DNA of 64,000 nucleotides, taken from Lytechinus pictus. Lineage: Eukaryota. Position numbers and translations under genes: made by a program. The notes below the pieces were generated by a model, which was not told the origin of the DNA, did not search any database, and worked only from the letters and a program-made list of their open reading frames with translations. Position 1 is the stretch's first letter, and each line of letters begins with the position of its first letter. Below, one piece after another: positions 9,712 through 63,242 of this stretch. The stretch lies in contig NC_087250.1 of the NCBI RefSeq assembly GCF_037042905.1, positions 27,344,001-27,408,000 of the forward strand, written 5' to 3'.

Positions 9712-10314
9712 AGGTCAAGTCCACCCCAGCAAAATGTTGATTTGAATAAATAGAGAAAAATCAAACTAGCATAACACTGAAAATTTCATCCAAATTGGAT
9801 GTAAAATAACAAAGTTATGGCATTTTAAAGTTTCGCTTATTTTTCACAAAACAGTGATATGCACAACTCAGTGACATGCAAATGAGTCAGTCGTTGATGT
9901 CCATCACTCACTAATTCTTTTGTTTTTTATTGTTTGAATTATACAATATTTCATTTTTTACAATTTTGACCATAGAGACCGACTTGACTGAACCATATAG
10001 TATTAAACAATGCTAATTCCACGTGTTCAGGGAGGAATTAATTGTTGTTTCACAGGACAACAGGTGGAAAATGGGAATATTTCACATTTCATGTAATAAA
10101 ATACAAAAGAAATAGTGAGTGAGTGATGTCATCAGCCTGCTCATTTGCATATCGACAAGGATGTGAATATAACTGTTTTGTGAACTTAAGCGAAACTTTA
10201 AAATGTCATAACTTTCTTATTTTACATCCGATTTTGATGAAATTTTTAGTGTTATGCTTGTTGGATTTTTCTCTTTTTATTTGAATCAACTTTTTGTTGG
10301 GGTGGACTTGTCCT
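9712..10314. mobile_element. Non-autonomous Kolobok-type MITE (family A)
   Basis: TTAA both sides (9708-9711, 10315-10318); TIR AGG(T/A)CAAGTCCACCCCA; AG..CT termini; second copy at 62643-63242. Confidence 0.85.
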
Positions 10315-10571
10315 TTAAAGGAGTGGTCCAGGCCAGCTCCAAAAAATATTTAGCCCGTAGTAAATAATTACAGGAGCCATTTCAAAAAGTATTATCTCCT
10401 TACTCGACTTTGGAGATTTTTAAGAGCATTTCTTGTAACGGTTATTTGGGGCAAAAAGAATTAAATTTCGCGCACATGTAGCAAGATCGGTCACGTGACT
10501 GTGACGTACCATCTCCACTTTGGTTTCGCAACAATCCAGCGCGCGCGACGTCTCACAGCTGCAATAAGCCT

Positions 10572-10753
10572 ATGTGTCAGGCATTCGGCTGCTCGGTTCG
10601 GCCGGGAGAAAATATCCATAAAAGTGCGTTTTCTATACCAAATCCGATCCGAGATCGAGAGAGATGTGCCCAGTGGCTTCACAATATTGGGACTGACAAG
10701 TTTGACATAAAAACATACAAATATAACGCGAGTAGAGTCGTTTGCGAGGACCA
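10572..10753 (+). pseudogene. THAP zinc-finger N-terminus of Kolobok transposase (truncated)
   Basis: MCQAFGCS..FSIPNP..RERCAQWLHNI..RVVCED fits C2CH THAP pattern, cut at the expected His codon. Confidence 0.8.
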
Positions 10754-10945
10754 AATGCTCTCTCTGGCCGTCGGCATCACCGGGCAGTTCCCGCACCGTC
10801 ACCAGTCATTTCTCCCCACTCGATCGGCCGCTGGCTGCGGTACGATCGGATCTTCCTCCACCTCTTCTTCTTCTATTCTTCGACGGTTCTCCAACTCTTC
10901 CGCATTCCACCTTGGTTGGAATGCATATCCCGCAGGACCCGACAT
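10752..10945 (-). pseudogene. KolX (P2X7 C-terminal-like Cys-rich) N-terminus, truncated, one nonsense codon
   Basis: Manual translation MSGPAGYAFQPRW...DRVGRNDW*RCGNCPVMPTARESI matches WCxCGxCxxMPTxxExxCC motif; TGA at 10801-10799 replaces a Cys. Confidence 0.75.
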
Positions 10946-12313
10946 ATTAATTGTTCAAATTATGAAATAAACGGCGAGAAACAAACAAATTGTGAATTAC
11001 AGGGTCGACGGTGGCCGCAATCAATGCAAGTCGAAAACTACATGTAGCTAATACCGTACGTATGCGGCGCGGCCGGCGCTGATGATCTATACGCATACGT
11101 GCGAGCGATAGCTAGCTAGCTAGCTAGCTCGCTCGCGCTCGTAGCATGCAGCAGCCAGCGAAGCCAAAGTGGAGATGCTACGTCACAGAAAAAGCTGCGC
11201 ATTGCATTCTGGGATCGTACAGACTCGTGCCAGAATATGATTTTGGCAAAATTGAAAATTCAATAAAAAATAACTGTGCCTCTTATTTCTTTAAAAAAAT
11301 ATAGTATAGGAAAGAGAAGGTTTTTGTCTATCTAGTGGATATAAATTAAACCTGGCCTGGACCACCCCTTTAATGAATACCAGACAAACAGCTGCTGTAA
11401 CATGCCAAGTGATCAAAGACCTATTACAAAATGAAGAGTTCCTTAAGATTCTTGACTCGGCTGTCAGTAGAGCTGTGGATAAAAAAATGTCAGAGTTAAT
11501 TGAGCGCTTGGACAAAATGCAGAGCTCCATCTACGACATGCAAATGGAAATGGATTCCAAGAATAGAGAGATTCAGAATCTAACAAAAATCACCACAACA
11601 CAAATATCCCAAATCGAAATGCTTGATCGAAGTGTTAACAGTCTAGAGCGATCTCGTAGGTCATGTATCAGAATCCTAGGTAAAAATGAAACACAAGGAG
11701 AAAACACAGACAACATTGTTTCAGATATCTGTCAGTCAAAGCTAGGAATTCAGATTGATGTAACAAGAGATATTGACAGATCGCACCGCACAGGAAGAGC
11801 AAGCCCCAGTCCTCAGACCATTCTCTATCGCCGCGTCCAATAATCGTGAAACTTACTTCATATAGGAAAAGGAAAGAAATACTTCAAAAGAGAAGGCTTC
11901 TGAAGGGGTCCGGCATCATCATCGTGGAGGATCTTACTGTGAGAAATCAAAAATTGTTGAAGAAAACACGTGAACACAGTAAAGTTGTACAGTGTTGGTC
12001 ATCCGATGGTCGCATCATCGCCCTACTTCCAGCCCGAGGAGGGAAGACCATGACTAAGCTGATTACCTGCGAAGAAGATTTAAACAAACTATAAACTTAA
12101 AACGAACAGAACGCGATCGGAACAATACAAAAAAAGAAATGCATGTAATAAACATTTGTTCTCACTTCTTAAATGAATTATAATGTGGGTAATACCACAC
12201 CTAACATATGTTTTACCCCGGTGAACTCCATGCATGTTTTAATATTGCCCTTTTTTCACATCCTTATGTACTTTTATGAATATTGATGTTTTTTATTCGT
12301 TTGTCGTTGTTAA

Positions 12314-15300
12314 ATGTCTACCTGTAATTTTTTTAGAGAATGCCTAAACAATTGCAACCATGACTTAAACATCTTGCATGAATTTCTGTTGCTTGATAAT
12401 TTAGAATTTTCTCCTTGTAAGAAATATTTTACACCTGATGAGTTTAACACATACATTGAGAGTAAAGCAAAATCAGCATATCCATTTTCATGTATCCACT
12501 TGAATTCAAGAAGTCTACTCAATAATTTTGATAATATCATTTTATTTTTAAACAGTGTGAAACTTAAACCTACAGTAATTTGTATCACTGAAACTTGGTT
12601 CCGGGAGCACACTATAAACCCTTTGTGTAATATAGATGGATATAGTTTTGAAGGCGTTAGCCGTTTATCAAGAAGAGGGGGAGGAGTTGGAATTTTTGTA
12701 AATAATAGTGTGCAATATGTAAGACGCTCCGACTTAGAACATAATGATAGTTGCATCGAAAGTGTGTTTGTGGAAATCGTCAATGATAATTCTGGTATTA
12801 TTGTTGGTTCAGTCTATAGGCCCCCAGATCAGTCAATTGATGATTTTTTTGAGAGATGCTCAAATGTTTTAAGTATTGTAAATAATGAAAATAAAATAGT
12901 TTATTTATTAGGTGATTACAATATCAATTTATTAAATGTGGGTAAAGTGCAATATGTTCTGGATTGATCACATCCCATCCTCCAACAATCTCCTTTATCC
13001 GAAGACCACACATTCCCCTGTCATCCGTTATGCACTCATTGTCAGAGCCCAATTACTTTCTTCCACGTATCTTACTCAGTATCGCCTCCACACATTAGGA
13101 AAGTCCTCCACCCGTACTTGCCCCCTTTGTGCCTCATATGATGAGACAGTAGAACACTTTGTCGGATCGTGCTCCTCTCTTGATCACCTACGCCAAGACT
13201 TCATACACAGAGTCGAGGAGTGTCTCACTGACCACCCACATTACCTAGACTTGTATACTGCTGAGGATCCACACCAATTTTCCTGTGCTACCCTATTAAC
13301 CCATCAACCTGGTCTCCCTTCAGAAGTTAATAATAGTCTGCTCCTTAAATCCCTCTTTTTTCTACATAAAATTCATGACTACCGCTCCAACTTGATGCTG
13401 AATCTGTAATTTACCGGACTGGGATTTGTTCTATTCGTATCTTAGAATCTCCAAAACAGTGGAGGGATCACCTAAGAGAGAGAGTTGATAATTTCATTAA
13501 TCTATTGTTATCACATCATATGTATCCATTGATTGACCATCCTACCAGAATCACGGATGAAACAATCTCTTTAATTGATAATATAATCACCAATGATATA
13601 CACGCAGACAAAGTTGAATCGGGAATATTAATAACTGACATCAGTGATCATTTACCTGTATACTCTATTAGCTGGAATGATGTTAAATCACAGCAAAATT
13701 TAGATAAACCGCTTCGAATAATCAATGACAATAGTATAAAGTGTTTCTTAAGATCCATTCCAATGGTCAATTGGTCTTGCCACAATAACAATCCAAATGC
13801 AAATTACGTGCAATTTCTAGAGAAGTTTTTAAATGTATATAACTTATGCTTCCCCTTGGAATATTTGAAGAAAAAACCTAAAAAGAATAAACCATGGATT
13901 AATTTTGATATTCGAAAGTTGTCAAAGAAAAAATGTCGTTTATATCGACTTTATCTGAAAAATCCATCACCATATCGTAAAGAAGTGTACAGAAAATGTA
14001 GAAATAAAGTCAGTAATATGATTAAACAAGCTAAAAAACATTATTTCTTGGAACGTTTTGCAAATTCCAAAGGAAATATGAAAAAAACTTGGAATACTGT
14101 TAATTGTGCAATGGGTCGTGCAAATAAAAAGTGCAATATTGATTTTCTGAAATGTAATAATCAAGTATTATATGATACCTCTGCTATTTGTAATGTATTC
14201 AATGAATATTTTATCAATATAGTAACTGAAATGAATTTTCCTGTTGATCAGGGCAATAATTTAAATTTGAATTTTTGTAGATATTTGGATAGAAATCCAA
14301 GGACTTGTTTTTTCAAACCAATCACTTGTACCGAGATTATTGATATTGTGTCAAACATAAAAAGTGATTGCAGTCCTGGGTATGATGATATAAGTATCAA
14401 GGTTATAAAGAAATCAATACATATTTTATGTCAACCCCTTTGTGCAATATTCAATCAATGTTTAGATATCGGTATATTTCCTGATGAATTAAAGATTGCT
14501 CGTGTTGTTCCTGTATATAAAAATGGTCCGAGTGAAAATGTTTCAAATTACAGACCCATATCAGTCTTGCCAATTTTTTCAAAGATTTTAGAAAAGTGTA
14601 TATATAATAGATTATTTGATTTTATAAACAAGTGCAATATATTATCTCTACATCAATACGGTTTTCGTGCTGGTCATTCAACTTCTTCGGCTCTTATTGA
14701 TTTTGTCCATACTGTTACCAACGCTCTTGATGATAAGAAATATTTGATAGCAATGTTTTTAGATTTGAAGAAGGCTTTCGATACAGTTGATCACGCTATT
14801 TTATTGAACAAACTAGAATTGTATGGCATAAGAGGTAATGTACTTAAATTATTTAAAAGTTATTTATCCAACAGAAAACAATATGTTGAAATATCCAAAT
14901 GCAAATCACAGCTTAAGATTATCTCATGTGGGGTTCCTCGGGGTTCTATTTTAGGACCGCTCTTGTTTCTCCTTTTTATTAATGATCTTAGTAAAGTATC
15001 CAACTTATTACATTGTATTATGTTTGCTGACGACACTAGTCTGTTTTTATCTCATACAAACTATCATGTTTTACACAATTTATTCAATTCTGAACTTGAA
15101 TTAATATCTGAGTGGTTTTATGCAAACAAAATGATAGTTAATCTTGCCAAAACCAATTATATGATTTTTAGTAATTTATTTTTACCAGATAGTCTTTCAA
15201 TTAGAATGTGCAATACAGATATTAAGTGTGTAACGTCAGTAAAATTTTTAGGAGTAACAATAGATAATAAGTTTACATGGAAAAATCATATTGATAATCT

Positions 15301-15859
15301 GTGCAATAAGCTTGCCAAAAATATAGGAATAATGTATAGATTAAGATCATTTCCCAAGGAGATTTTAAAACTAATGTATTATGCCATTGTATATCCATAC
15401 CTCAATTATGGTATTCTAGCCTGGGGAAGTGCAAGTAGCATTCACATTGATAGATTATATATTTTACAAAAACGTGCAATAAGAATTATGTCTCATGCTC
15501 CTTACCTTGCCCATACGAATCCTCTATTTGTTGAATTGAATGTATTAACATTTTATGATATTCATGCATTTCAAATTCTTATATTTATGTATTTATGTAA
15601 CAATAACCTCTTGCCAGATTACATCAAAACATTCTTTAAGTTCAATAGTGATTTCCATGGATACAACACAAGAAATGCAAAGGATTTCCATCTACCTAAG
15701 CCAAGACTCTCATCTTTTAAAAACTCAATTTTATTTCAAGGACCACAACTCTGGAATTCTATTTCTGTAGACATCAAGCAATCAGTTTCATTAAATGTTT
15801 TTAAGTCAAAATCAAGGCAATTTATTTTAAATAGTAATTCAAAAAGTTTCTTTGTATAA
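12314..15859 (+). CDS. LINE ORF2 (APE endonuclease + RT); ~1005 aa open after removing the insertion at 12959-13483 and one TSD copy
   Basis: APE: HLNSRS, ITETW, GGGVGIFV, YRPP, GDYN, TRIT, SLIDN, SDHLP; RT: NYRPIS, DLKKAFDTV, GVPRGSILGPLLF, FADDT, KFLGV; KVQYV|DNFINL is in frame. Confidence 0.9.
12959..13483 (+). mobile_element. 5'-truncated non-LTR retrotransposon 3' end (CCHC finger, (GA)n tail) inserted in ORF2
   Basis: CPLCASYDETVEHFVGSC, stop 13409, short UTR, GAGAGAGA tail; GTT duplicated at 12956-12958 and 13484-13486. Confidence 0.8.
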
Positions 15860-16142
15860 ATTTCATTCAGGCATTATAGGCACCCCCCCCCCTTCGTTGT
15901 AGTTTAGTGATTTTTTTCTATCTTTGTTATTGAAGTCTTTGTATAATTATTATGTTATAGGGTCAGCTAATCACAAGGCTTGTTCCTTTCTTGCTGTCCC
16001 TCTCATAGTCAATCCAATGTTTATTTCTATTTGTTGTTGTTGTTTTTTCTATTTTGTGAATATGATACTTTGTATATGTATGTTTTTGTATGGATTTTTA
16101 TGAGCAAATAAATTGAAATTGAAATTGAAATTGAAATTGAAT

Positions 16143-18554
16143 CTCGTCTCCTGGCTCATGCGAGTCACATAGAGTACAAGTTTGCAAACCTTGATTTGGC
16201 AGGTAACGACCATTAGCAATTGGCAATCTATGATTTCCACAACGATATTTACAGAGTTCAATCCTATCTGCAAAATATAATTTCACTAAATAGTTTTCAA
16301 ACCCAAAATCTTGTTTGAATATTCTATAATTCATGCACAAACGGTTTCTATTAATTTCAGTATTCAATTCCTGTTTAGCAATATCATCCAATCTGAGACT
16401 CACAGTTGACTTAACCCACTTAACGTCCAAGACTATATTCTCAACACTCCACAGGTTAGACATCCCACATCTATCCAAAATGTTTATCACTTTTACTATC
16501 CATGGTGACTTATAAAGGTCCCTATCATGAAGTTGACGCAAAAGCCTATAAATCATACTTGACAATTTAGATTTTCCATTTACACTTTGACGAATCCTTG
16601 CCCAAAAATGTATCATACGCTTTTCAATAATATAAAGCAGACTGACTCTTCCCAATTCGCCATATGCCATACAATTCGCAGACCCTCGACTAAGTCCAAG
16701 GAGGCTTTTTATAAACTTCTTATGAAACATTTCAATACAATCTACATCACCAAACCCCCAAATTTCACTACCATATAACAAAATTGGTACCACCAGCTGA
16801 TCAAACAATTCACATTGAATGTCCAAAGGCAAACTCAACACCTTGGCCTTACTTTTAAGATTAAACATTGCTCTCCTAGCTTGATTAACTTGCTTTTTCA
16901 TAGCTTTCTTGAAGGAGCCATTGTGATTAAAAGTGGTACCTAAATAAATATAATCCTCTACGACGTCAAGAGCAGTATCCCCAAACAAAAACTCTGGATA
17001 TTTACGAACCTTTCCACGTGAGAAAATCACAACTTTAGTCTTGCTTGTATTAACAGAAAGTTTCCACTGCTCACAATATTGATGAACAGCCGACAGAGCA
17101 GACTGAAGTTCTTGAGCCGACTCAGCCAATATTATTGTATCGTCAGCATATAATAAAACATATAGTCGTAAGAAAACTTCCACATCATCATTGCTCAGGT
17201 AGTCCCTTATTAGAGAAGAGCACATATTTAAGCCTTTATAATACCGACTAACAAAATATTCAAAATCATTAAGAAAAACTGCAAAGAGCAAAGGAGATAA
17301 ATTTTCACCCTGACGCACTCCGATATTACAGGTAAAGAAATCAGAAATGTTATATCCATACTTTATGCATGATTTAGCATTTTCATACATATTATAAACA
17401 ACACTAATAATCTTCCCATTGATACCACATGAAATCAACTTCGACCAGAGACTAGATCTGTCAACAAGGTCAAAGGCTTTTCTGTAGTCAATAAAGGCAC
17501 AGTAAATTCTCTTCGCATCGTGTAGATACAAATCGATCAAACCATGTAATGTAAATATGTGATCAAAGGTACTATGACTTTCTCTAAACCCTGCCTGCTC
17601 ATCGCCTACAATTCCTGCACATTCCAAATAATTGGAAAGCCTAGAGTTAATACAAGCAGTGAACAATTTACCTACACAACTCAACAAAGTGATACCTCTA
17701 TAATTATCAGGATCATCCACTGAACATTTGTTCTTGTACAAGGGTTTAATCATACCCAGACACCAGGCAGTCGGTACGACAGCAGAACATAAAACAATAT
17801 TAAAGATCTTAACCAACATAGTTACCATAAAATTAGGACAATATTTCAAAAACTCATTTATAACATTATCAATTCCACTTGCTTTGTTGTTTCGTAAGCT
17901 TTTGATGATTTTTGAGACTTCATCATATTCAAAATCTCTATTTATGTCTTCATTTAGAGAATGACTTATCTTAGTAGGATCAAAAGAGTGCCCTTCACCA
18001 ATTTCCGATGTGTTTGTCTTCATACTCAACTTATGAAAGTGCTCCACGAAGTTATCTAAGGAAATTTTGCTACCCTTTTCAATCGTTTTACACTCTTTAT
18101 TCAGAATATTCCAATATTCTTTCGAATTAGACTTCTTGAGATCCCGCAAAGATGAATGTAACTTCTTATTATATTTTCTACATTTGTTCCTGATAAAACA
18201 TTTATAGGACTTGGCCTTTGTTTTAATTTCAGCCTTAGCTTCCTCCGTTTTCAATTTATCTAATCTACGTTTATCCCTAAAATATTATTTTCTCCGACTC
18301 TCGCATGTATGATCGAACCATGGTTTATCCCTAGTCTTACCACAAGTGTTGCTTACATTACGTTTACGATTCATATTGACCAATTTACAAATGCCTACTT
18401 TTCTTGCTGGTTCTATTAACAAATCATTCAACTTCTGTACAATACTGTCAACAGCACCATGAGAAACATCTTGAATATCAATTGAATCTAGTTTCTCATT
18501 TAAAAGTTTCAGGTGAATAGGGCATAAATTGTCTGCATAAAATCTGTCCTCCAC
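16143..18554 (-). pseudogene. RTEX-like ORF2 reverse transcriptase (frameshift near 18280, 5'-truncated)
   Basis: KPWFD, KASGID, NYRGITLL, FIDYRKAFD, GVRQGENLSPLLF, LLYADD, YLG, YGELGR, YRCGNHRLPI, CTLC. Confidence 0.9.
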
Positions 18555-25814: not shown

Positions 25815-26206
25815 CAGAGCTTTTATTGGATTCTGTGATGTTGAGTTTGGACAGTTTTTCGTGATCGTCGGAGCAGATCGGAAAACGGAAGGATGCACTT
25901 CCGAAACGGCGAATGTTCACAGAGCATGACCGAGATGAAATTGTAAGTCCAGCTTTTGATGAGACATTTTATGACCTCCCAATATTCCTTAATGATGCTG
26001 GATGATGCTGAATGATGCTGATGATAAAGTAGTAATATCTGATTGGAAACAAGGGACAGAACTGGGTGCTGAAGGACGAGTGACCGGAAATACCAGACAG
26101 TTTTCATCCCATTGACATTGCACAGGAAAAGTGCAGTGAGTGACCGGAATTACCAGCTGTTTTCACTTGATTGTTTCCAGGGTTAGAAAAATTCATCATC
26201 AGTACA

Positions 26207-29200
26207 ATGGAGCAACTGAGGCCTCCCAGACAGATGAACTTTGAAGCAAGTGACCTTTCCTTAGAGTGGAAACAGTGGAAAGATGAGTTTGTGCTCTACG
26301 TGGATTTGAGCATGGATGGTAAAGAGGACAAGGTGAAGCTCAAGATGTTGAAGTACCTTGTTGGTCCACAGGGAAGGGAGCTCTACGAGACGATAAAACC
26401 TGAAGGGACAAGATTACCGAATGGATCCGTGCAAGACGTCACTATGGCCCAGGCTCTGGATGCTTTTGAGAAGCATTGTCAACCAGTAAGGAATGAGACC
26501 GTGGACAGGTATCGGTTCTTTACTCGAAGTCAAGGTAGTGGAGAATCATTTGATTCGTTCTTAACTGAACTCAAACTGTTGGCGGCTCACTGTAACTTCG
26601 GAGATTTAAAGGAGTCTCTGATTCGTGATCGGATCGTATGCGGGATCAAAGATGGCATGCTCAGGGAGAGACTTTTACGAGAATCTTCACTTGATTTGGA
26701 CAAGTGTGTCAAAGCTTGTCAAGCATCTGTGCTCTCTAAGGCCAGATTAGATGTTCTTGTCGGTGAGCAGCAACAATTGGTTCATGCAGTGAGCAATAAA
26801 GAAAAACCCAAGAACTTGCAGGCAGTGCAGTGTAAATTCTGTGGACGTTGTCATGAAAGGAAAAAAGAGAAATGTCCAGCCTTCGGGAAAGAATGCTTTG
26901 CATGCAATGGAAAAAATCATTTCTCTAGTGTATGCAGGAGCAAAGCCAAGAAAGATGGTAAGGATCAGAAGAGAGATCCAAAGAAACCAAAGAAAAGACC
27001 AGTCCATGTAGTGGAAGCAGGCAGTTCAGATGAAGAATTCCAGGAAGTTCAGACAGTGGAACTGGAAGGAGAGCATGCTGTGTACGGGATAGACGGGGGA
27101 AAGTTCAAAAAGAAAATTTTTGTGCTGATGACACTAAGTGGGAAAGATGTGAAGTTCCAGGTAGACTGCGGAGCAACATGTAATGTGATCCCTAAGGCGC
27201 TGGCAAAAGAAGTCATCAAGAGCAAGGACCTTGTACTTACTGTCTTTAATCAGACAACTGAAGTTCCTCTTGGCAAGACCAAAGTGAAAATGATGAATCC
27301 CAAGAATGGAAGGAAATACAAAGTGGACTGCATCGTTGTAGACAGAGAGTGCATGCCAATACTTGGGAGCAGTGCAGCCCAGCAGATGGGATTGATCAAG
27401 GTCTGTGAGGAAAACATAATGTTGCTGAAGGCTGACACAGATTGTGAGAGTACTCTAAGCAAGCAGACCCTGATGACTGAATATGCTGATGTGTTTGAAG
27501 GGACAGGAAAACTTGAGGGAGAGTATCATATGAGTGTGGACGAAGACGTTACACCGGTGATCCACCCACCAAGACGAGTACCAGTGGCTTTGCAGACCAA
27601 ACTAAAGGAAGAATTAGACAGGCTTGAAGAAGGCAATATAATTGCAAGGATAGAGACGCACACCCCTTGGGTCTCAAGCCTTGTCTGTGTGGAGAAGCCT
27701 AATGGGAAGCTGAGAGTATGCTTAGACCCAAGAGATCTGAATAAGGGATTGAAACGAAGCCACTATCCCATGACAACAATAGAAGACATCCTATCAGACT
27801 TGACTAATGCGAAGGTGTTTAGCACCTTTGATGCGAAGAACGGATTCTGGCATGTCCAATTAGACGAGTCCAGCTCGGAGCTGACAACATTCAACACTCC
27901 CTATGGCCGGTATCGTTGGAAGCGTATGCCTTTTGGTCTGTCCACCGCTCCTGAAGAGTTCCAAAGACGCCTGAACTTGGTGCTGGAAGGTCTTGAAGGT
28001 GTCAGATGTGTGGCGGATGACATACTGGTGTTCGGTAAAGGGGAGTCAGAAGAGGAATCAATAAGAGACCATGACAAGAAGGTTAGAGCCTTGATGAACA
28101 GATGTCGGGAAAGAAATGTAAAGCTTAACATAGAGAAAGCTAAGCTTAAAGTGAAGGAAGTATCATACATAGGACACACAATCTCTGCTGAAGGACTGAA
28201 ACCGGATCCTAAGAAGGTGGAAGCAGTCTTGAAGATGCCTAACCCTACGGACGTAGCGGGAGTCCAAAGATTTATTGGATTTGTGAACTACCTGAGCAAG
28301 TTTCTGCCTGGACTTAGCGACCTTTGTGAGCCACTTCGCAAGCTGACGCAGAAGGACGTAACTTGGTGGTGGGCAGAGGTGCATGACAGGGCAGTGACAG
28401 AAATAAAGAAGCTGGTGACTGCAGAGCCAGTACTCCAGTATTATGACCCATCCAAGGAATTGACGCTGCAAGCTGATGCTTCAGACACTGGATTAGGTGC
28501 AGCATTGATGCAAGAAGGACGTCCAGTGGCGTTTGCCAGTAGAGCCCTAACTGATACAGAGACAAGGTATGCACAAATTGAAAAAGAACTATTAGCAGTA
28601 GTCTTTGGTTTGCAAAGATTTCATGTGTATACCTATGGAAGACCAGTAAGTGTGCAATCAGACCACAAACCACTTGAGATCATCACTACAAAACCACTCC
28701 ATCTAGCACCAAAGAGATTGCAGAGGATGTTAGTGAGAATGCACACTTATGATGTGGTAATCAGATACAAGCCAGGAAAAGAGATGTACTTGGCAGATAC
28801 CCTAAGCAGAGCCTATCTTCAGAGTGGCAAGACTGATGAAATGAGGGAGCTAGAGACTGTCAACTTAGCAATGCACATCCCAGTTTCACAGCCTTTGCTT
28901 ACTGAGATCAGAGAAGCAACTAAGAGGGATGAGACTATGCAGAGACTACAAGAGATTATCAAGCAAGGTTGGCCCAATGACAAGAAGGATGTGGAGCTAG
29001 ACTTAGTCTCATATTTCCATGTTAGAGACGAGCTGAGTACAGAGAATGACCTCATATTCAGAGGAGAGAGATTGGTCATTCCAAAAGCCATGAGACGAGA
29101 GATGACGTTACAGATTCATGATTCCCACATTGGTGTAAATGGATGCCTGAGAAGAGCAAGGGAATGCATGTATTGGCCAGGCATGAGTAGCCAATTGAAA

Positions 29201-31371: not shown

Positions 31372-32047
31372 TATATGTTTACCCACCTAGAACATGCAAA
31401 ACGTTTACTAGTAACTAGTGACTATACTACTAGACCGATTTTTACTCAAACCCCTTTCCAATACAGAAATAACAAGAGAACATTCACCTAAGAATAGAAA
31501 TCCTCATTTGTTCTGATAAATATCAAGAGTATCAGTACAAAATGTAAACAGTGTCAGTATAAAATGTAATTTGAAATTAACAGAAATGTCAAAGAAAATC
31601 GGTTATTCAATCTGCTCAGATCAAAGAATAATACTCTCAGTACTGCTAAAGTTATATAATTGTTGGCCGTGTACTCCATTCACCGTCCAATTGAAACATA
31701 GGACCTATATATAATATTATATTCCACTTGTTAACATTATATTTTCCAATCCGTTTGGGATTTAGTGGCTTAAGTGTTGCAAGCAATATAAAAACAACAG
31801 TTAAAATCAGACGCTTCTCATACATTTGTCACAGTGCAGAGTGCTTCCCTTCATGCAAGAAGAATTCACAACTCTTATTCATATTTTGTTTCTTAGCCTT
31901 TAATAAACAAGAGCGGCTTTTGTTAGGAATAGAGTTATGGAGTGCTCAGCTCGTGAAGCTTACGAATTACTCATTAAAATATTGACGAATTGCCTACGTG
32001 CCCCCTACTAAAACATGTTACAAAAGTCGCTATAGGACAGAACATAT

Positions 32048-32330
32048 TTTTTGTCTCGCCTTCATAGCAGAGCGAGACAATAATTGGTGCCTCTTTTTGA
32101 CGATGGGGACGGCGTCAACACTGAAATCTTAACCAAAGTTAAGTTTTTGAAATGTCATAGTTCATGAAACTTGGAAACAAGGGTAATAAAGTATTGCGGA
32201 ATATCCTGACTACGTTTGTTTAAGGTAACATGACCAAGGTCAAAGGTAATTTAGGGTCATTGCAGGCCTGGCCGCCTGGGTCAATGAACTTAGAAAATGT
32301 TGGGAGAATCAACATCGAAATTAAAAACTA
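32048..32330 (+). mobile_element. Possible non-autonomous Helentron/DINE-like fragment (mirror ~45475-45755)
   Basis: T-run then hairpin TGTCTCGC..GCGAGACA and AAGGTCAAAGGT motifs; classification by resemblance only. Confidence 0.35.
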
Positions 32331-38509: not shown

Positions 38510-38545
<36 letters not shown>

Positions 38546-39052
38546 GGGGGGGGGGGAGCGACCGCTCCCACCGCCCGCTCCCCCTGGCTACGCGCCTGAA
38601 TCCTCATATCAGTGATAACAAAAATGATATAATCATGAGAGCGTGAAGCACGAGCTGATTTTTCCCTCTACAATGACAGGAACTGGGCTTTTGGAGCTCT
38701 TCCAAATTTCTGTCGGCAAATGCGTCACTCTTTTCCTCCTTTTCTCCTTTCCTTTCTCTTCTGCTTTCCTTTTCCTTGGTTATAACATGGAATGGGCATG
38801 CATATATATAAATATATATGTATGCATGCACATATGCAAGCACACACTCGATCGGACCTATGGCTATACCCCGCATATATATATATATATAAAACGAGAA
38901 ATTTGATTGGCCATTCCAACATCTGTGTTAAAAGTTACGAACCGTTGCGTACGTTATGACACAACCATACGTACGTTATGACACAACCACGCGTACGTTA
39001 TGACAGAACCACGCGTACGTTGTGACAGAACCACGCGTACGTAATGACTATA

Positions 39053-39344
39053 ATAATATGGTGGGCCGTTCCCGCCAAAACGCATGCCAAAACCATACGT
39101 GTGCAAGCCAGAACGTACGCATGGTTCTTTCATAACGTACGCGTGGATCTGTCATAACGTACGTATGGTCTTGACAGAACGTACGTATGGACATTTTCTA
39201 TTATACTTCTATGACATTCTTAACGTACGTATGGTTTTGACATAACGTACGCGTGGTTCTGTCATTACGTACGCGTGGTTCTGTCATTACGTACGCGTGG
39301 TTCTGTCATTGCGTAAGCGTGGTTCTGTCATTATGCATGCTTAA
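39053..39344 (+). repeat. Palindrome spacer = terminal module T (copy 2)
   Basis: 39056-~39300 is a direct copy of 18891-19137 and inverted copy of ~53820-54064. Confidence 0.9.
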
Positions 39345-39523
39345 TATAGTCATTACGTACGCGTGGTTCTGTCATAACGTACGCGTGGTTCTGTCATAAC
39401 GTACGCGTGGTTGTGTCATAACGTACGCGTGGTTGTGTCATAACGTACGTATGGTTGTGTCATAACGTACGCAACGGTTCGTAACTTTTAACACAGATGT
39501 TGGAATGGCCAATCAAATTTCTC

Positions 39524-39571
<48 letters not shown>

Positions 39572-42500: not shown

Positions 42501-45500
42501 TAGGGGGCGCCAAATTGAGACTCGGGCTAGGGGTGGGGGGCGAAATAATATTCGAACTAGGGGCGCTAAATTGTTGTTCGAAGGGATGTTAAAATGATGT
42601 TCGAACTGGGGGCGCCAAATTGATACTCGAACTGGGGGGGGGGGCGAATCGATGTTCGAGCTAGGGGGGCGCCAAATTGATACTCGAGCTAGGGGGGGGG
42701 GCGAAATGATATTCGAACTAGGGAAGGCAAATTGAGTTCGAAGGGATGCCAAAATGATGTTCGAACTGGGGGCCGAATTGATGTTCGAACGGGGGGGGGG
42801 GGGGGTGTGCGAAATGATGATCGACCTACATGTAGGGGTGCCGAATTGATACTCGAACTAGGGGGGGGGGCGTCGAATTGATGTTCGAACTAGGGGCACC
42901 ACATTGATGTTTGAACTATAGGGGGCGCCGAATTGATATTCGAACTAGGGGCGCCAATTTGATGTTCCAACTGGGGGCGCCAAATTGATGTTCGACCTAT
43001 GGAGGCCAAATAGATGTTCGACTACGGGGGGGGGGGCATGGGGGCACGTGCATGAATTCCTAGAATCAGTCCTTAAAATGTCCCTTTTTCTAATTTGAAT
43101 ATCAAAAATCTTCAGCTCGCGCTTCGCGCTCGCATCATTTGGTTAGTGAACTACGTATGGTCTTCATGAATTCCTACAAACAAGCCTTAAAATGCCCCTC
43201 TTCAGGTCTGAATTTTCTAAATTTTCAGCTTGCGCTTTGCGCTCGCAAGATTTGATTGGTGAGATGGGTATATGTTAATCATGATTACAAGTGCTATATG
43301 TGCATGTTTAGATGTAATTCTAACAAATCAGCAAGCGCTTATTGGCACTCGCGTTAGATGACTATGGTGAGATGTGTATACTCTTAATGAATTCCTAAAA
43401 TATAGTCCTTAAAATCTTCCTGTTTGGGGGTCAATATTTACAAAAATTTCAGCTCGCGCTTCGCGCTCGCATTATTTAGCGAGACAGGTACGCATCATGA
43501 TTACAAAAGATTAATTATAATGTCCCCTTTTAGGTCTGAATATCAAAAATTTAAGCTCGCGCTTCGCGTTCGCATTATTTGACCAGTGAGAGACATATCC
43601 GCCTAATGGCACTGTCCTTAAAATGTCTCTATTAGGTCAGTATACCTGGCAACTGGGCGCGCTTCGCGCGCTTACTAAGTGACTCAAGATTTTTGCTGGT
43701 GCCCCCCAATGCCGTGACCCACGGTACGCCACTGCATCGATTGATAATTTGATGTCTCATTGAGAAGTTAGAATATAGTGAATCCCCAGAAAAAAACGAA
43801 ACCGTAATTCGGTGAAAGTTTTTGCTGCCATAATCATAATTTTTCTTCATCTGATATATAAATCAAAATATATCAATGGTCATAAAACACGCATGACTGA
43901 GTTAGAACAATGGAAATGGTGTTACCAAATTTTCGTTTGCTCGTGCAATTTTACGATTTTTCTGGCTTTTACTGCTATCCATTCAATCAAAGTTCATAAC
44001 TGAAACATCCATTTCTTCTTTTTTTTCATAATTATGAGACCCTCTTCGTAAAATATGAATGACGCACGGTCGAGAAAAAGTTGCATGAAACATATTTGAT
44101 TCCCTACCTATTCGATGAATCGTTGGAAAAGAAACATTCCACGGCAAAAAATGTTCAGTTATGCCAAATTGAATATTTTTTTCATTTGAATTATGGCTCA
44201 AAGCTCATGACCAGTTGACCACCATAGTCATGAATGTATTTCGACCTTAGTGATGTCAGTATGTTATACATTGAACCCTAGGCTATGAGGATAATTGACT
44301 GACGGCTATTTTGTTATTTGGGGGCTAGATCTATTTATTTAGTTCATGTGGGGAGCTAAAAAATCGGCCTTAGAGCTGAATTCCAGTGTATTTCATACTC
44401 TGCTTTGGGGCCTTCTCATACAATAGTTGCCATAGACTCTATGATATTTGACATTTACCAAAAAAGAAAGACTGGCAAATTTTGTGCGCAAGTCAACATT
44501 TCGTGTGTCACTCTGTGGATTTTGCTTGCCAACCAAATATCAACCCCCCCCCCCAAAAAAAAAAAGAGCCGTTATTCGCCAACAAGGTCAAAACATTTCT
44601 ATTGATGTATAATTAACATTTCCATTACATACATAATAAAAACATGCATAAAAACATTTTAGACTTAATGATTTCACAGAGTCAAGTAATCTATTTCTAT
44701 AACGGCTTTTGGGGTCATTTTCCAAACGATATTGGATTCGACGTTTTCTTTGTACACTGCAAAATCATCACTGCCGCGGTCCTGTAGAAACTGATGAACC
44801 GGAAGAAAGTTAACTTCATTAATTTTGTACTTTGCATGTGAACCAGTTATTGAGGGAACTCTCAATTGGTCTAGGTAAAATACTGTTAAATGAGAAGTCC
44901 CCAAAGAAAACGGCCAGTCACCGACTGGTGCATATTTCTTTCACAAGCAAACTAAAAATTACTATCCCTACGGGGGGGGGGGGTCAAGTTGATCTAAAAC
45001 ACTAAAGAAAAATGCTTAGCACGCCGTATCAACCGCAGGTAATGTTATTTTTAAGTTAGGCCCCCACAATCCCAAATCAACTAAATTAGATCTACTTCAA
45101 GTAGGTTTCCAAAAGTTTCAAAACTCCATAAATTCTACATATTATTTCACATACAACTAAATCTACATACAAGCTAAATACATAAACACAATAACGCCAA
45201 ATAAATTCAAATTACTTAATTCATATATTGATGTAAAAATAAATATTTACATTTAGCGCATGTTTCCAATTCAAAACACTTTATAAGTATATACACTACA
45301 TGATATAAAACATCTCAATGTTACTTATACCATCGAACTTGTCACATACACGGTGTATCTGCTAGTTTATATAATACGACGTACATTTGTTATATTGTAT
45401 TTTTTTAAATTGAATACATCTAATGTGGGAGATTAGCTTTAATCTTACACACGCTTTGGAATATCTTATTCTAGTTTTTAATTTCGATGTTCATTCTCCC

Positions 45501-47712
45501 AACATTTTCTAAGTTCATTGACCCAGGCGGCCAGGCCTGCAATGACCCTAAATTACCTTTGACCTTGGTCATGTTACCTTAAACAAACGTAGTCAGGATA
45601 TTCCGCTATACTTTATTACCCTTGTTTCCAAGTTTCATGAACTATGACATTTCACAAACTTAACTTTGGTTAAGATTTCAGTGTTGACGCCGTCCCCATC
45701 GTCAAAAAGAGGCGCCAATTATTGTCTCGCTCTGCTATGTAGGCGAGACAAAAATATGTTCTGTCCTATAGCGACTTTTGTAACATGTTTTAGTAGGGGG
45801 CACGTAGGCAATTCGTCAATATTTTAATGAGTAATTCGTGAGCTTCACGAGCTGAGCACTCCATAACTCTATTCCTAACAAAAGCCGCTCTTGTTTATTA
45901 AAGGCTAAGAAACAAAATATGAATAAGAGTTGTGAATTCTTCTTGCATGAAGGGAAGCACTCTGCACTTTGACAAATGTATGAGAAGCGTCTGATTTTAA
46001 CTGTTGTTTTTATATTGCTTGCAACACTTAAGCCACTAATCCCAAACGGATTGGAAAATATAATGTTAACAAGTGGAATATAATATTATATATAGGTCCT
46101 ATGTTTCAATTGGACGGTGAATGGAGTACACGGCCAACAATTATATAACTTTAGCAGTACTGAGAGTATTATTCTTTGATCTGAGCAGATTGAATAACCG
46201 ATTTTCTTTGACATTTCTGTTAATTTCAAATTACATTTTATACTGACACTGTTTACATTTTGTACCGATACTCTTGATATTTATCAGAACAAATGAGGAT
46301 TTCTATTCTTAGGTGAATGTTCTCTTGTTATTTCTGTATTGGAAAGCGCTTTGAGTAAAAATCGGTCTAGTAGTATAGTCACTAGTTACTAGTAAACGTT
46401 TTGCATGTTCTAGGTGGGTAGACATTCATACCACAACGCATATCATATTCTGAAATAGGATGTGCAGTATACCAACATGTGAACTTAATTATATATGGAT
46501 ATATTAATAATATATTATTTACAGAAATGTTGAAGTTTACTTGCAATATATAAAGGAATAAATGAAAATTTCATTGTAATGGTGAAAGTTTCGGATGCGT
46601 TTTTAATTTTTTTGACGAATCGTCAAATACTCAAATAACTGAAATAACTCTATGGTTTATATCGTTCCTATATTTTTGTTTCAAGTAGTAATGCGTAAAA
46701 GACAGCTAGATACAGTTGATGATACGACACCTTTTCGTTTCCAACCTACAGTGGGAAATCACGTTGTAATTTTTTAAAACGAATTCCATTGAAAATATTA
46801 CGTGGATTTACTCAGGCCTAAACTGCATTGCTATCATTTACATGTATTGTTACATCTTGAAATAGTTGATATATACAAGATACACGGGACCTTGGAATTC
46901 ATGTTTCACGTGTATTGTATGCAAGGGTGTCGATCGGTATTCTTGGTTGGGGGGGGGGGGGGGCGAGTGATTGACACAAATATTCTTGTGGATGGGGATC
47001 TTTCAATATTACCCCCACTAAAATCACAAGTTGTGACATTTGGGAGTGGTTGATATGCATGGTGTTCTTGGAAATTCCTTCATTGTTGCAGTGTACTGTA
47101 TTTATATAATTAAAAAAAAAATTAAATTTGTGTTACAAGTATTAAGCCCAGTGGCGTACCGTGGGTCATGGCATTGGGGGGCACCAGCAAAAATTTTGAG
47201 TCACTTAGTGAGCGCGCAAGTTGCCAGGTATACTGACCTAATATACATTTTAAGGACAGTGCCATATATTAAACAGATATGTATCTCACTGATGAAATAA
47301 TGCGAGCGCGAAGCGCGAGCTTAAAATTTTTGATATTCGGACGTAAAAAGGGACATTATAATCAACTTTTTGTAATCATGATACGTACCTGTCTCGCTAA
47401 ACAATGCGAGCGCGAAGCGCGAGCTGAATTTTTTTTACCCCAAACAGGGAGATTTTAAGGACTATATTTAAGGAATCCACTACATATCTCACCACAGTCA
47501 TCTAATGCGAGTGCTAAGCGCTTGCTGATTTTGTTAGAATTACACATGAAGCACTTGAAGTCATTGTAATCATGATTATTAACATACGCAACTCAATAAT
47601 CAAATATTGCGAGCGCGAAGCGCGAGTTGAAAATTTAGGAAATTCAGACATGAAAAGGGGCATTCTAAAGCTTGTTTGTAGGAATTCACTAAGACCATAC
47701 GTATTTCATTAA

Positions 47713-48576
47713 AGACCCAGACCGGACTAAAAAAAGAAATTGACAAATTATATACCAATCGAAAGCTTATAAGCTACTAAATACAGCAATGTATGCTTTA
47801 TGCATTTTCACAGCTTCCCAGCTGAGTATTTGCTTAAGAATATTCCAATTATCGGGCTTCGAACCCGGCTTAGAAAATGTGCTTTATTGTGCTTTTCACC
47901 TGCCTCGAGACCGTGACGTCACGTTGTGTAAGAAGCGTCGTGATTCCATAGGTTTGTACACAGAAAAACTGGGTGATTTCTTTGCTTTCCAGATAACGCA
48001 TTTCATTCTCTTTACTTCTATCACAGAGGGATATCACATATATTTTTTCCCACTAGCTTGAATTTATGAAATCTACAGTTTTTATCTAGTTTTTGCCATA
48101 TTTTATTTCCTGCTTATTTGGCGCAGATTTCAATTCTATCTGCATTTAAATTATGTATAACAACTTTTCCTGACATAGCACTTTAGGCCCAATAAGAACC
48201 AAACAAAGAAATCACAAAAAAGGTAGTGAATAGTTGTAGGTTTACATCAATTTGAACAGTGAGTAATTTTAAGTGCCATTTTCATCTGGAAACGAAAAGA
48301 AAATGGATTCATAACATGGAAATGGAAGAAAATACCCAATGCTTTTGTACACAAGCCTATGGAATCACGACCCTCCAGACACAACGTGACGTCATCATTT
48401 CCAGGCGACGTGGGGGTGCTAAATCGAAGCGTACTTTGGAGGAGAAGTTTCTTAAATTTTTATTCAATATTTTTAAGAAATGGAAGGAAATATTTGTAAT
48501 ATTTTTGGTATATTTGTATTCTATGAATAATTGCCTTTCTTTTGATATATGATTGTTTTTACACCGGTCATGGTCT
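47713..48576. mobile_element. Kolobok-type MITE (family D), right-arm specific
   Basis: TTAA TSD (47709-47712, 48577-48580); TIR AGACC(CA/AT)GACCGG; empty site with a single TTAA at 24360-24363. Confidence 0.85.
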
Positions 48577-58165: not shown

Positions 58166-58788
58166 AGGGATGGTCCAGGCTGAAAATGTTCATAATAACT
58201 AAATATAGTAAAATCCACAAAGCCAAATGCTGAAAATTGAATTAAAATCGGATAACAAATAAGGAAGTTATTGAATTTTAATTTGTCTAATTTTAAATAT
58301 TTTGTGAAAACAGTTATTTGCATATGGTCATGATTATTCATTAGGTGGGCTGATGATGTCACATCCCCACTTTCATTGTTCTTATGTTATTACATGAAAT
58401 CATACACTTTTCATTTCTTCATACATGTGCAAATGATGTGTCTCTATTACGATAAAATAGGTTGCAGCTATAAATAACTAATGCACTTGATCAGTTGCCA
58501 TCCAATTGTTTTAGCTCTTGGTAAAAAAAGTTTAATAAATCTAATTTCATATAATACAATACAAAAGAACTGGCGGGGATATGACTTCATCAGCCTACCT
58601 CATGAATATTCATAAAGACATGCCTAGAACAGTAGAACTCAGTGTTTCACCGGAATGATAATGCAAATCTTTAAAATTCAAATAACTTCGTTATTTTCTA
58701 CCCGATTTTGATCAAATTTTTAGCATATTGCTTTTTGAATTTTATTCTTTTTATTGAGTTTTAAATATCTCCAGCCTGGACCATCCCT
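58166..58788. mobile_element. Kolobok-type MITE (family C)
   Basis: TTAA flanks; perfect 17-bp TIR AGGGATGGTCCAGGCTG, related to family B TIR. Confidence 0.85.
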
Positions 58789-60535
58789 TTAAATGTGACC
58801 ATTATGCTACTTCTAAAAATTCAAAGAACTACGCCACTGTCATATTGAAATTATGTTCAACGCTTCACCAAAACAATATATCAAAATATAATAACACAAC
58901 ACCCAGTAATGGCTTCCATAAAGTGACAGTGATCTGGAGTCGGGTATCATCGATCGGGAATCCACCTTCATGTCTATCCATTCTACGTCAAAAGATGGCG
59001 CTCTTTCAAGTCTACATTTGACACACATTGAAACACTTGATGAAGATGTGATTTCTGACATTAATAAAATCAGTTGAAATCAGAAGTCCTAGCAGTCTAC
59101 AATGAAGCTGAAATGAAACGATTGATTTCCGTAATGTCAATACGCTAAAGATGCACTCCCTTACTCCTCACTTTTTTCCTTGCACAGAGCAAATATGCAA
59201 CTAAATAGCTCATGAAATAGATTCGATGAGATTGAGGAATTACCCCCCCCCCCCCATTGCCCAATTGGCAAGCATACACTGTTACTTTACAAACATGCAA
59301 GTCAGGTCAAAAAAATTTATGCAAAAGGAAGATCAAATGAAATATTTTCAAACTGAGAATGTCGTCTTCCATTATAATCGTTAGAGTAATCATGTCGGGG
59401 TTTTTTTTTGGTGAGGCACCGATCCCTCAGATATGACGAATAAGCTGGAGGTTTCGTGTTGAGATAGAAAGGCCAACGCAAAAAGCAGGGTAAAAACACG
59501 GTGTTGTGATCACGTATCAAGATGCTCAAAGCTACCCGTCACATGCTGAAAATAATATAGAGTGATACTCAATTACCTAAATGCTGAAAATTTTTATTAA
59601 AATATGTTACAAAATACTGTTGTTAGGGTATTTTAATGGGCTGGTGATATCACGTCCAGTGCCATAGAAAGGACTTAAAAAAAAATTGTTAACTAGATAA
59701 AATAAAATGAAAAAAAGAATAAGTGCGGATTAGTCTGCAGGCACAGACCCTGATTAGAACTTCGACCAACCAGTGTGCCTCCACGCAAAGACTAGCACAT
59801 ACAAAACTTGCTGTTCCAAGATAACCTTCAGTACACAAGGCATATAAGTAGGCTGCACATATAGACCCTTATCTCGAGTGAAGGGTTTTCCCAGCAGACT
59901 AAGTGCGGATAGACATCATCAACTTGTTCATTGTATATTCATGAAGACATGCAGATACCCTTCTTATCAGAACAATGAAGGTGCTTAAAATATCAAAAAT
60001 CTATCATTTCTTATCCGGTTTCAATGACATTGTCAGTATTTTAATTGTCTAATTTTACTTTTTCTATTCAAATCATATTATATCCAAGCCTAGAGTACCC
60101 CCTCTAAGCTTCCTTTCTTAGGCACGTCAACCCACATGAAATAATAATATTTGTTGACAACGAAACTACATAATTTTTATCATGTCATCTCTGCCTTCCA
60201 GAAGGTGTACGTTGTTCATTGAATCACATGGATCCTTTTAATTTATACAGTCTTTTATATATCTATATAATACACTGAAATATGAAGAGTTAATGGACGA
60301 GGTGTAATGTTTAATACTTAATTCTTATATTGCCCCCTTTCCTGTCCAAACGACGGTGTAATATTCGCAACAATCACCCTCATGAACATTTGGTATTTGC
60401 ATACTATACCAGCATGCTGACAATCACCATGTAGAAACATGCTCATTATAACTGTAACGTTAAATATTTTTTAAATGATATGTTATTTTTCCTGTTTAAC
60501 CATCCTTGTGATCCCATACAGAGTGTTGTGCATAT

Positions 60536-61537
60536 GAAGAGTTTAGTTACAAAAGGGGTTAGGTCCACTATGGACCATTTCGAGAAAAAAAACATGTTTT
60601 TTATTCTCACTTATGTAATGTTAAGTTGGTGGAATGACACTGTATATCACTGAGATGGACACGTGACTGATTGAACTCTCAAATAACAAGTTTATTAACA
60701 ACAACTCGGAGCCGTAGTTCTTACATCTCGGTTACATGTAGCGTTGCCTAGCAACCCATAGCAACCACTTAGCAACCACGCGCATGCGTAAACATATATC
60801 ATAACATGACAACTTGGTGCAATATTCTTATGAGAAACTAAATTATCATGATGTACTGCTCTATCACGTGAACATAAAATTGGGTATAAAAGAAATCTAC
60901 CTGCCTTCAATTTTTTTCTATATATTCTTTTAAAAATCATAATTGTGGACCTACCCTCTTTTGCAACTAAACTGAAATGAATCCAATCTATTTTGACTAA
61001 AGAAGTGATTGTTTCATTGCCACTTTTATTCACGTTTTCATGAAAATTTCAAATTTTCTTTGTTTTCATTAGAGCAACAAAAAATTTAGAGGTTTTGAGA
61101 CAGAAAACAATAAAATTTATGAAAAATGGACCTAACCCCTTTTGACAAATGAGCTCTTCAGAAGAGTTTGTTTGCATAAGGGGTTAGGTCCACTCCAAAA
61201 AAAAAAATCATTTTTTAAATTCTTCCATATTGCAATATTCTTATGCGAAACTAAATTTTAATGATACCCTACCATGATAACATAAAATTGGTTATAAAAG
61301 AAATCTACCTGTCTTCATCTTTTTCATGATATTCTTTTCCCCAAAAAAAATCTGTATGGACCTAACCCCTTTTGAAAAAAAGTGTAATTTTTCTTTGCCA
61401 TTTTAATTCGATTTTTAATAGGAATTTCAACTTTTCTTTGGTATCATCTTATAGAGCTACTAAAAATCTACACATTGAGACATAAAAATCAAATTTGATG
61501 AAAAATGGACCTAACCCATTTTCCAAGTGAGCTCTTC
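60536..61537. mobile_element. Two tandem related TIR MITEs (60536-61159, 61161-61537), superfamily uncertain
   Basis: GAAGAG..AAGGGGTTAGGTCC / GGACCTAACCC..GAGCTCTTC ends; ATAT outside both outer ends. Confidence 0.65.
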
Positions 61538-62642
61538 ATATACATTGGAAGTGATCGACGGAAATATGCAAATAAATGTTCAAGTTGAAAGTTGTTCATT
61601 CTAGGGACTGATACAGGATGTAAAACTGCATGTTCAAAACTTGTAGATTATATTCACATTCGTCCACAAAGTGAACAGAGACAGAGGGTGTGAACTTGAA
61701 ATTATCGGTAAGTTTTGATAATTAGGAATACCCTAATCCGTATTTTCTTTTCATTTTTCCGTATTGATAAACTGGAGAACATGTAAGCTAATACTACATA
61801 ATCCTGAATCATTTCATATGAATTTATAGGCCTACTTTATTAACACTTGGGATACGAGAAATTTCCTAGTCAATAGAAAATCGAATCTAAACATGATCTT
61901 GCTGTAGCCTATAACATTGACACTATAAATGTTAGAGGTGAGATAATTCAAAATATAAGTATGATAAGAGATGAAGAAGGACAATTTTATTAGGACTCGA
62001 ACATTTGTTAATAGAGATAATGAGGGTGACTCTTGCATGTGGTAAACGAATGTGGTGAAAGAAATAATTTTTGTTCTCGCTGATGTATGACTTTCTGTGA
62101 TAATACAGCACCCCCCCCCCATGGTTATGCACGTGATCAGGAAATTACAAAGAAACATGTTTGAAAGTCTCCGCTTCTTTAAATTTTTCGTTGTTCTTCC
62201 TTAATTGGAGCCATAGTATAATATAAAGTTCACTATCAAACCGTATTAACAAAAAAAGAAGTAAAGATTGTTTTATCTTGTCAATCTGAGACACTGACTA
62301 CACTCAAAGCAAAATATACAAAATTAGAAGAGATGTATTGTCTATCAACCTGATAATTGTAAACTGATGTTACATACATATTTTGTACATGCAACCAGCT
62401 AACTGTGACACCTCATCCCTCTCTTTCCCCTCTCTCTCTTTCTTGTATCACTTATCAATATCATGTAAAAGAGAGAGCTCTGGGGCTAGACCCACCCCAA
62501 AAGTTCAAGCACCAAGATAAAATTGAGAAAGAGAAAGAAAGGAAAGGAAGAGGTGTGAATTATATACACATATTTTTCTTAATTTTCTTATTATTTTTTA
62601 TCCATCACAAAATAAGCTGTCTTCTTTTGCTCGCTTTCTTAA

Positions 62643-63242
62643 AGGTCAAGTCCACCTCAGAAAAATGTTGATTTGAATCAATAAAGAAAAATCAGACAAT
62701 CACAATGCTGAAATTTCATCAAAATCGGATGTAAAATATTAAGAAAGTTATGACATTTTAAAGTTTCGCTTATTTTTAACAAAATAGTTATGTGAAGCCA
62801 GTTATATCCAAATGAGAGAGTTGATGATGTCACTCACTCCCTATTTCTTTTGTTTTTTATTGTTTGAATTATACAATATTTCAATTTTTACGAATTTGAC
62901 GATAAGGACCTCCTTGCCTGAAGCACAAAATGTTAAAATAATGGAATTCCACGTGCTCAGGGAGGAATGATACTTCATTTCACATGACAATGACGAGAAA
63001 ATAAAAAAAATCATATTTCATATAATAAAATACAAAAGAAATAGTGAGTGAGTGATGTCATCAGTTCCTTATTTGCATACTGACCGAGATGTGCATATAA
63101 CTGTTTTGTGAAATGAAGCGAAACTTTAAAATGCAATAACTTTCTTATTTTACATCCGATTTTGATAAAATTTTCAGTGTTATGCTTGTTGAATTTTTCT
63201 CTCTTTATTCAAAACAAGTTTTTGTTGGGGTGGACTTGTCCT
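62643..63242. mobile_element. Kolobok-type MITE (family A, second copy)
   Basis: TTAA flanks; same TIR and internal sequence as 9712-10314. Confidence 0.85.

Follow-up and report, generated by a model that had tools for sequence, protein, structure and literature searches.

A 64,000-nucleotide stretch of the Lytechinus pictus genome (assembly GCF_037042905.1, contig NC_087250.1, positions 27,344,001 to 27,408,000 of the forward strand; called the window below) harbors five Kolobok transposons that carry a motif resembling the cAMP response element (CRE; perfect form TGACGTCA) at a similar distance inside both ends. Our analysis suggests that this motif is probably a part of a conserved host-factor promoter that lies at each end of Kolobok elements of the Kol0 group, faces inward and was inherited by gene-less derivatives, known as MITEs (miniature inverted-repeat transposable elements). 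An earlier, sequence-only reading of the window had proposed a cis-element held at a fixed distance of about 183 bp in four independent families. The end module proved to have a wider reach, into other marine animals, and a looser spacing than was supposed there, and a pair of inward promoters is the most likely explanation of it. The shared end layout of the Kol0 elements has apparently not been described so far: no account of a subterminal motif was found in the Kolobok and T2-MITE literature, a prior mention being possible in Repbase Reports, most subscription papers and older T2-MITE papers, which lay outside its scope.

Read from the terminus inward, the TTAA and a short terminal inverted repeat (TIR) are followed by about 110-130 bp of AT-rich spacer. 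Next come promoter motifs in a GC-richer cluster, then, at about 150-220, the CRE-like site, and lastly a gene start. The gene behind the motif is the transposase at the left end and KolX at the right end. The cluster contains a YY1-like site near position 145 and, in the urchin families, a putative E-box or octamer. A CRE or half-CRE is found upstream of a gene among other putative promoter motifs.

Kolobok elements of the window

The elements have the following limits, with no strand assigned:

9712-10314: element A1, a 603-bp Kolobok MITE without genes, from a family of very high copy number
10319-11369: element B, a low-copy internal-deletion derivative of a two-gene Kol0 Kolobok
47713-48576: element D, an 864-bp gene-less MITE
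58166-58788: element C, a 623-bp MITE of the same spacer lineage as A
59530-60102 (approximate limits): a sixth, decayed element of A/C type with deletions in its left end
62643-63242: element A2, 600 bp, 83% identical to A1

All five elements apart from the decayed one are flanked by TTAA, the target-site duplication of Kolobok, and have AG..CT termini, which fits the 5'-RR..YY-3' rule of this group. Their TIRs are short, with 11-14 of the first 14 bases complementary. The ends of A and B were confirmed by reads and contigs: loose read ends at 9707-9709 and 10318-10319 mark the boundaries of A1, where read depth is high, and a contig of run X9 spans B alone (10315-11373). A1 and B stand head to tail and have one TTAA (10315-10318) in common, and one TTAA is likewise common to two short tandem elements in locus L253 (520-1094 and 1099-1672). 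No coding content was detected in A, C and D, and D gave no tblastn match against the collected transposases; these three are classed as Kolobok MITEs by their termini.

Element B retains the beginnings of two genes:

10566-10751, + strand: 5' part of a THAP-domain transposase gene (Pfam THAP, E 2.8e-5)
10745-10945, - strand: 5' part of the KolX gene, interrupted by one internal stop

The transposase start codon lies at position 248 from the left end, 64 bp inward of the motif; it reads AAG in the window and ATG in the reads and contigs of three runs. The THAP fragment is 95% identical to the Lytechinus pictus protein P0001 and 74% identical to a 1005-aa THAP+DDE protein of the same species, the DDE part being deleted in B, so that the combination of THAP and DDD/E transposase is seen in the full-length relative of the fragment. 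KolX starts 425 bp inside the right end and 240 bp inward of the motif. Its fragment alone gave no Pfam match; it is 31% identical over 58 aa (E 2e-9) to an open reading frame at the right end of the related element L088, which passes Pfam P2RX7_C, and through this frame the second gene of Kol0, KolX with its P2X7 ballast-like domain, is recognized in B. Since the THAP gene starts at the left and KolX at the right, B is a deletion derivative of an element in which both genes face inward. In the accessible parts of its description Kol0 is defined by TTAA, RR..YY termini, a transposase and KolX, with Kolobok-1_XT as type (PMC9587614), and by its sequence features B is assigned to this group. An assignment of B to KolobokP, which has long terminal direct repeats and a His-Me nuclease, was rejected, as B has inverted ends and KolX; the nuclease was not separately searched for. 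The protein P0001 combines a THAP domain of the B family with a KRAB-like stretch whose match is weak (E 0.002) and does not reach the Pfam cut-off; it is possibly a fusion of transposon and host gene.

CRE-like sites and spacer lineages

Positions of the motif are given below as the distance of its start from the terminus, 1-based:

9895-9902, + strand: A1 left, TGATGTCC, 2 mismatches, position 184
10124-10131, - strand: A1 right, TGACATCA in inward reading, position 184
from 10502, + strand: B left, TGACGTAC, 2 mismatches, position 184
within 11158-11188, - strand: B right, TGACGTAG, 2 mismatches, position 185
47914-47921, no strand assigned: D left, perfect TGACGTCA, position 202
48387-48394, no strand assigned: D right, perfect TGACGTCA, position 183
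58354-58361, + strand: C left, TGATGTCA, position 189
58582-58589, - strand: C right, TGAAGTCA in inward reading, position 200
59911-59918: right end of the decayed sixth element, position 185
62825-62832 and 63053-63060: A2 left and right, positions 183 and 183
9876-9883, + strand: octamer-like ATGCAAAT, position 165 of A1 left
10492-10497, + strand: E-box CACGTG, position 174 of B left
10499-10529, + strand: left arm of the B inner inverted repeat, 31 bp, 94% identical to the right arm, contains TGACGTAC
11158-11188, - strand: right arm of the B inner inverted repeat, contains TGACGTAG

The ten positions and distances of the sequence-only reading agree with ours, which are larger by one because of the 1-based count. 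D alone has the perfect TGACGTCA at both ends, and 2 mismatches are found in A1 left and in both B sites, which retain the half-site TGACGT. The window contains 24 sites with at most one mismatch, 7 of them at 183-202 inside these element ends. An inner inverted repeat begins at the motif in B and D according to a self-search, and ATGCAAAT is also present at position 165 in A1 right and A2 right.

The spacers were compared by alignment z against dinucleotide shuffles. Those of A and C align across positions 18-172 (z 6.6-9.9), while the left and right spacers of B and D gave no convincing alignment to A/C, to each other or between left and right (z <=4.0). As A and C align, we count three lineages in the window, or five spacers that are unalignable, instead of the four independent families claimed before. 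Simple shared descent, the refutation foreseen by the sequence-only reading, thus accounts for A and C, and does not account for B, D and the outside families described below.

Relatives outside the window

Relatives were picked by their transposase only, the motif being ignored. They comprise 5 loci from three genome bins, the best 80 among a total of 283 matches in metagenomes and 20 further stretches of genome bin G001. Ends were called from TTAA and TIR likeness, again without use of the motif, and 61 of 70 candidate ends were retained because they faced a transposase match or were part of a TIR pair; among the nine excluded, three had the motif (at 159, 194 and 197) and six did not. To these we added the 10 ends of the window and four paired ends whose TTAA was imperfect or which started with GG. 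The resulting 75 ends form 29 spacer clusters at z >=5, 24 of them from outside (24 in all at z 4). As the left and right ends of one element were counted apart, the 24 outside clusters are not fully independent.

With one representative per cluster, a site with at most one mismatch is present at 173-213 in 8 of the 24 outside clusters (mean 0.32, maximum 2 in 300 shuffles). When TGACGT half-sites are included, by a rule fixed after B and L087 had been seen, the count is 11 of 24 at 173-213 (shuffle mean 0.61, maximum 5, 300 runs) and 13 of 24 at 150-220. Shuffling positions 130-260 alone gave similar means, and the flanks outside the elements had the motif in 0 of 17 cases. At least one counted miss (L158_362) is maybe not a true end. 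In an unbiased 6-mer scan TGACGT/ACGTCA comes out on top (15 of 29 clusters at 165-210), and AT-rich words rank below it; GCCATnTT, a YY1-like word, is found at 141-160 in 9 of 29 clusters, and mean GC climbs from about 0.30 to 0.46 near position 140. The proposal of a positionally constrained cis-element is therefore supported by an end-anchored enrichment over shuffles, in relatives collected blind to the motif and with unalignable spacers.

The fixed geometry of about 183 bp does not survive this comparison, since the distance ranges from 140 to 218, and over 20 clusters from 140 to 217 (mean 188, standard deviation (SD) 17). Elements with the motif at both ends gave left/right distances of 197/198 (L127), 196/198 (L174), 185/186 (L159), 197/209 (L167), 196/218 (L184), 160/160 (L087) and 157/158 (L088); shorter distances (148-160) occur in L087, L088 and L257. 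In these elements, which were collected by their transposase, the start of THAP or KolX lies, where found, another 54-154 bp inside the motif. The collected transposases are mostly 30-50% identical, and the nearest named relative of the L159 protein, at 60%, comes from the coral Oculina. The deep branches of the transposase tree give no order of gain or loss. The motif is missing in L147, L195, L201, L213, L156, the left end of L091 and the right end of L209. Among 13 short two-ended TTAA elements on the G001 contigs it was found at 140-220 in 1 of 26 ends, and this single match belongs to a gene-bearing derivative. Decayed copies of the L088 family (L212) have TGATGT and TGAAGT at the place of the motif, which are variants seen in A and C.

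The whole Kolobok transposons L087-L091 stand on animal-like contigs in three prokaryote genome bins (G001-G003), which means that these bins carry host DNA; a comparison with 301 genomes from the family to which G003 belongs gave a match in G003 alone. On viral contigs, TIR-pattern scans gave no matches in one case and 86 in another, with 0 of 86 paired ends, and a transposase scan found none. Some motif-free ends contain other host-like words at a comparable depth: TGTTTAC near 200 in L147 (5-300) and L195 (28-330), and GTTGCCATGGCAAC in L156 (4380-4700), which we take to be FOX-like and RFX-like sites.

Probable promoter function and alternative explanations

A constant palindrome across divergent transposases and TIRs points to a dimeric host factor. 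A host bZIP-type site is favored because YY1-, E-box- and octamer-like motifs adjoin it just upstream of both inward genes. The sequence-only reading had named a host bZIP site among its options, which gains from these neighbors, and had overlooked the promoter context. We propose that host proteins of the CREB/ATF type would bind the CRE-like site and drive both genes, and that selection on autonomous elements would have preserved the site, and roughly also its distance, in the face of diverging spacers. The gene-less A, C and D would have inherited the motif because the terminal 200-300 bp were retained, and the CpG in MITE copies would then decay to TGATGT or TGACAT. The existence of short elements without the motif is expected if it serves transcription. 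In run X23 plus-strand RNA covers 10432-10687 and minus-strand RNA 10688-11071 of B, as judged by mate order on the assumption of a standard stranded library and at a depth below 10.

Several observations speak against a promoter of this kind. The signal in run X24 is mainly from the minus strand, so both directions were seen in one of two RNA runs; no start-site peak was found over B in the two runs at a depth below 10, and position 10483, which lies upstream of the B motif, is itself covered by 4 plus-strand reads. GCCATnTT reads inward in 10 of 29 clusters and the opposite way in 2, and the inward orientation suits outward starts. The gene-bearing ends L147, L195 and L201 have no motif, and the gene-less D retains two perfect sites. 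The distance of the motif to the terminus varies less (157-218, SD 17) than its distance to the start codon (54-572, SD 53-135; 14 ends, 53 being the value without an outlier). Left and right distances agree within 2 bp in B, L127 and L174, whose spacers barely align (z -1.3, 3.5 and 3.2). A plain promoter role needs no tie to the terminus, and the promoter explanation leaves this tie unexplained; the promoter function of the CRE-like site is itself a prediction from sequence.

One would argue from the last points that the host-factor cluster is required in cis for transposition: bound factors of bZIP and YY1 type would bend or open up the last 150-220 bp, which is roughly the length of one nucleosome repeat, so that the transposase reaches and pairs the ends. 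Such a role is compatible with a promoter role, and we consider it possible and rather unlikely. It agrees with the closer tie of the motif to the terminus than to the start codon, with the match of both ends in elements with unalignable spacers and with the retention of the motif in the gene-less A, C and D and in the decayed sixth element, whereas the wide range of 140-218, the loss of the CpG core in both window copies of the high-copy family A and the 25 of 26 short-element ends in G001 without the motif argue against it, even if the short elements may come from lineages in which the motif never existed. A universal requirement in cis is ruled out by these motif-free short elements. Helical phasing speaks on both sides. 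The six left-right differences above 3 bp (10, 11, 12, 19, 22 and 29) are near whole helical turns (p ~0.015, post hoc), and a first test of 5 periods on 20 values gave p 0.02 at 10.5 bp and p 0.003 at 11 bp. With a jitter null, the pooled distances gave no period of 10-11 bp (p 0.06 with 32 ends and p 0.22 when collapsed to 23 values), and in the range of 8-14 bp p was 0.007 at 12.3 bp for the 32 ends and 0.32 in the collapsed set. We do not claim helical phasing, for which the six differences are a weak hint.

It is much less probable that the transposase binds the motif through its own THAP domain as an inner site, comparable to those in the Sleeping Beauty inner repeats or inside the P element. 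Kolobok transposases do carry THAP, the inner inverted repeat of B and D begins at the motif, and the P-element THAP binds internal sites according to the accessible text of PMC7776569. Against this, the core is constant across transposases 35-50% identical and across differing TIRs, it is surrounded by recognizable host promoter motifs and unlike the TIR, whereas the inner and outer repeats of Sleeping Beauty are related, and the THAP-bearing L147 and L195 have no motif. Neutral shared descent or chance, by which the spacing would be inherited from a common ancestor with no present function, is hardly probable. Descent does hold for the aligned A, C and sixth element, faint homology is possible for D right and some outside spacers with z 3-4.7, and the limited independence of the 24 clusters works in the same direction; yet a motif of 6-8 bp and its position persist where spacers of 113 bp are unalignable and proteins 30-50% identical, and almost none are seen in shuffles or flanks.

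It could also be that both roles are joined: a cluster of host transcription factors about one nucleosome repeat inside each Kol0 end, maintained in distant animal hosts and in helical register with the terminus, would drive both genes and open or pair the ends, and other lineages would fill the slot with other host motifs, namely FOX-like near 200 (L147/L195), RFX-like (L156) or ETS/GC-box-like (a Xenopus MITE). We regard this combination as unlikely. If true, host chromatin factors would determine how long the ends are, and the 450/660-bp constraint on KolobokP repeats could have its explanation there too.

Inward promoters at both ends stay our preferred explanation, and the content of the Kolobok end beyond the TIR is now named as a conserved and testable module. 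The module predicts the location of both promoters, a minimal end length (>200 bp) and host factors that may switch the element on. A further prediction is that CRE-, octamer- or YY1-like sites are dispersed in the genomes of marine animals by MITEs in thousands of copies. Should the module be required in cis as well, Kolobok would clearly exemplify a DNA transposon that couples access to its ends to host promoter factors.

Other features of the window

A very long inverted repeat with many identical stretches in its arms occupies about 31800-46000, with its center near 39200, and by its sequence would be a foldback-type element or an inverted duplication. Open frames in the following stretches resemble retrotransposon proteins:

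11310-15859, + strand, and 16098-18284, - strand: similar to non-LTR (long terminal repeat) retrotransposon ORF1, endonuclease and reverse transcriptase, the first stretch opening directly at the right end of B
26171-30190, + strand: intact-looking frame of 1339 aa, LTR retrotransposon gag-pol-like by eye

Comparison with known systems

The sources compared here were accessible in part, and the following statements refer to those parts. Like our elements, Kol0 Kolobok (PMC9587614) and T2-MITEs (PMC6004289) have the TTAA duplication, RR..YY termini, short TIRs, a THAP+DDE transposase, KolX with a domain resembling the P2X7 tail, and short non-autonomous derivatives. The difference is that these descriptions give no subterminal motif, promoter or fixed spacing. 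The text of supplement 4 of PMC9587614, whose file layout was unchecked, gave no match for the motif, and TGACGTCA was absent for the Xenopus MITE Kolobok-N2_XT from the supplement text searched in PMC12676858 (file 13 excluded). KolobokP shares an unexplained constraint on length, with terminal direct repeats of about 450 or 660 bp (PMC9587614), and has TGACGTCA in at least five terminal repeats among the matches listed (14 of 55), at about 25, 25, 195, 195 and 219, as read by eye and with line breaks possibly hiding sites; the motif is rare there. It differs in its direct-repeat architecture and in that the motif is not mirrored at both ends. In oyster KolobokP repeats TGTTTAC is seen by eye at about 179-181 (families 7, 8, 9 and 10) or about 220-235 (4, 5 and N3; PMC9587614).

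Sleeping Beauty has two-part ends of the inverted repeat/direct repeat (IR/DR) type with an inner site far from the cut site, and a host factor, HMGB1, aids assembly (PMC5224488). There the transposase binds both the inner and the outer site, which are related, whereas the Kolobok site is host-bZIP-like and unrelated to the TIR; ends of the IR/DR type were rejected for Kolobok, as end sequences and self-search show no likeness of the motif region to the TIR. A host bZIP dimer binds to the ends of the Drosophila P element. Like Kolobok, this element has a THAP transposase and binding sites in its interior, together with subterminal inverted repeats of 11 bp, and it differs by one gene, 8-bp duplications and transposase sites just 9 and 21 bp from the TIR (PMC7776569). 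The 'blurry' promoters of Tc1/mariner elements likewise lie within the transposon end (PMC6446368). They are AT-rich with weak core motifs, whereas the Kolobok motifs form a defined cluster that recurs in mirror image at either end, ahead of two converging genes.

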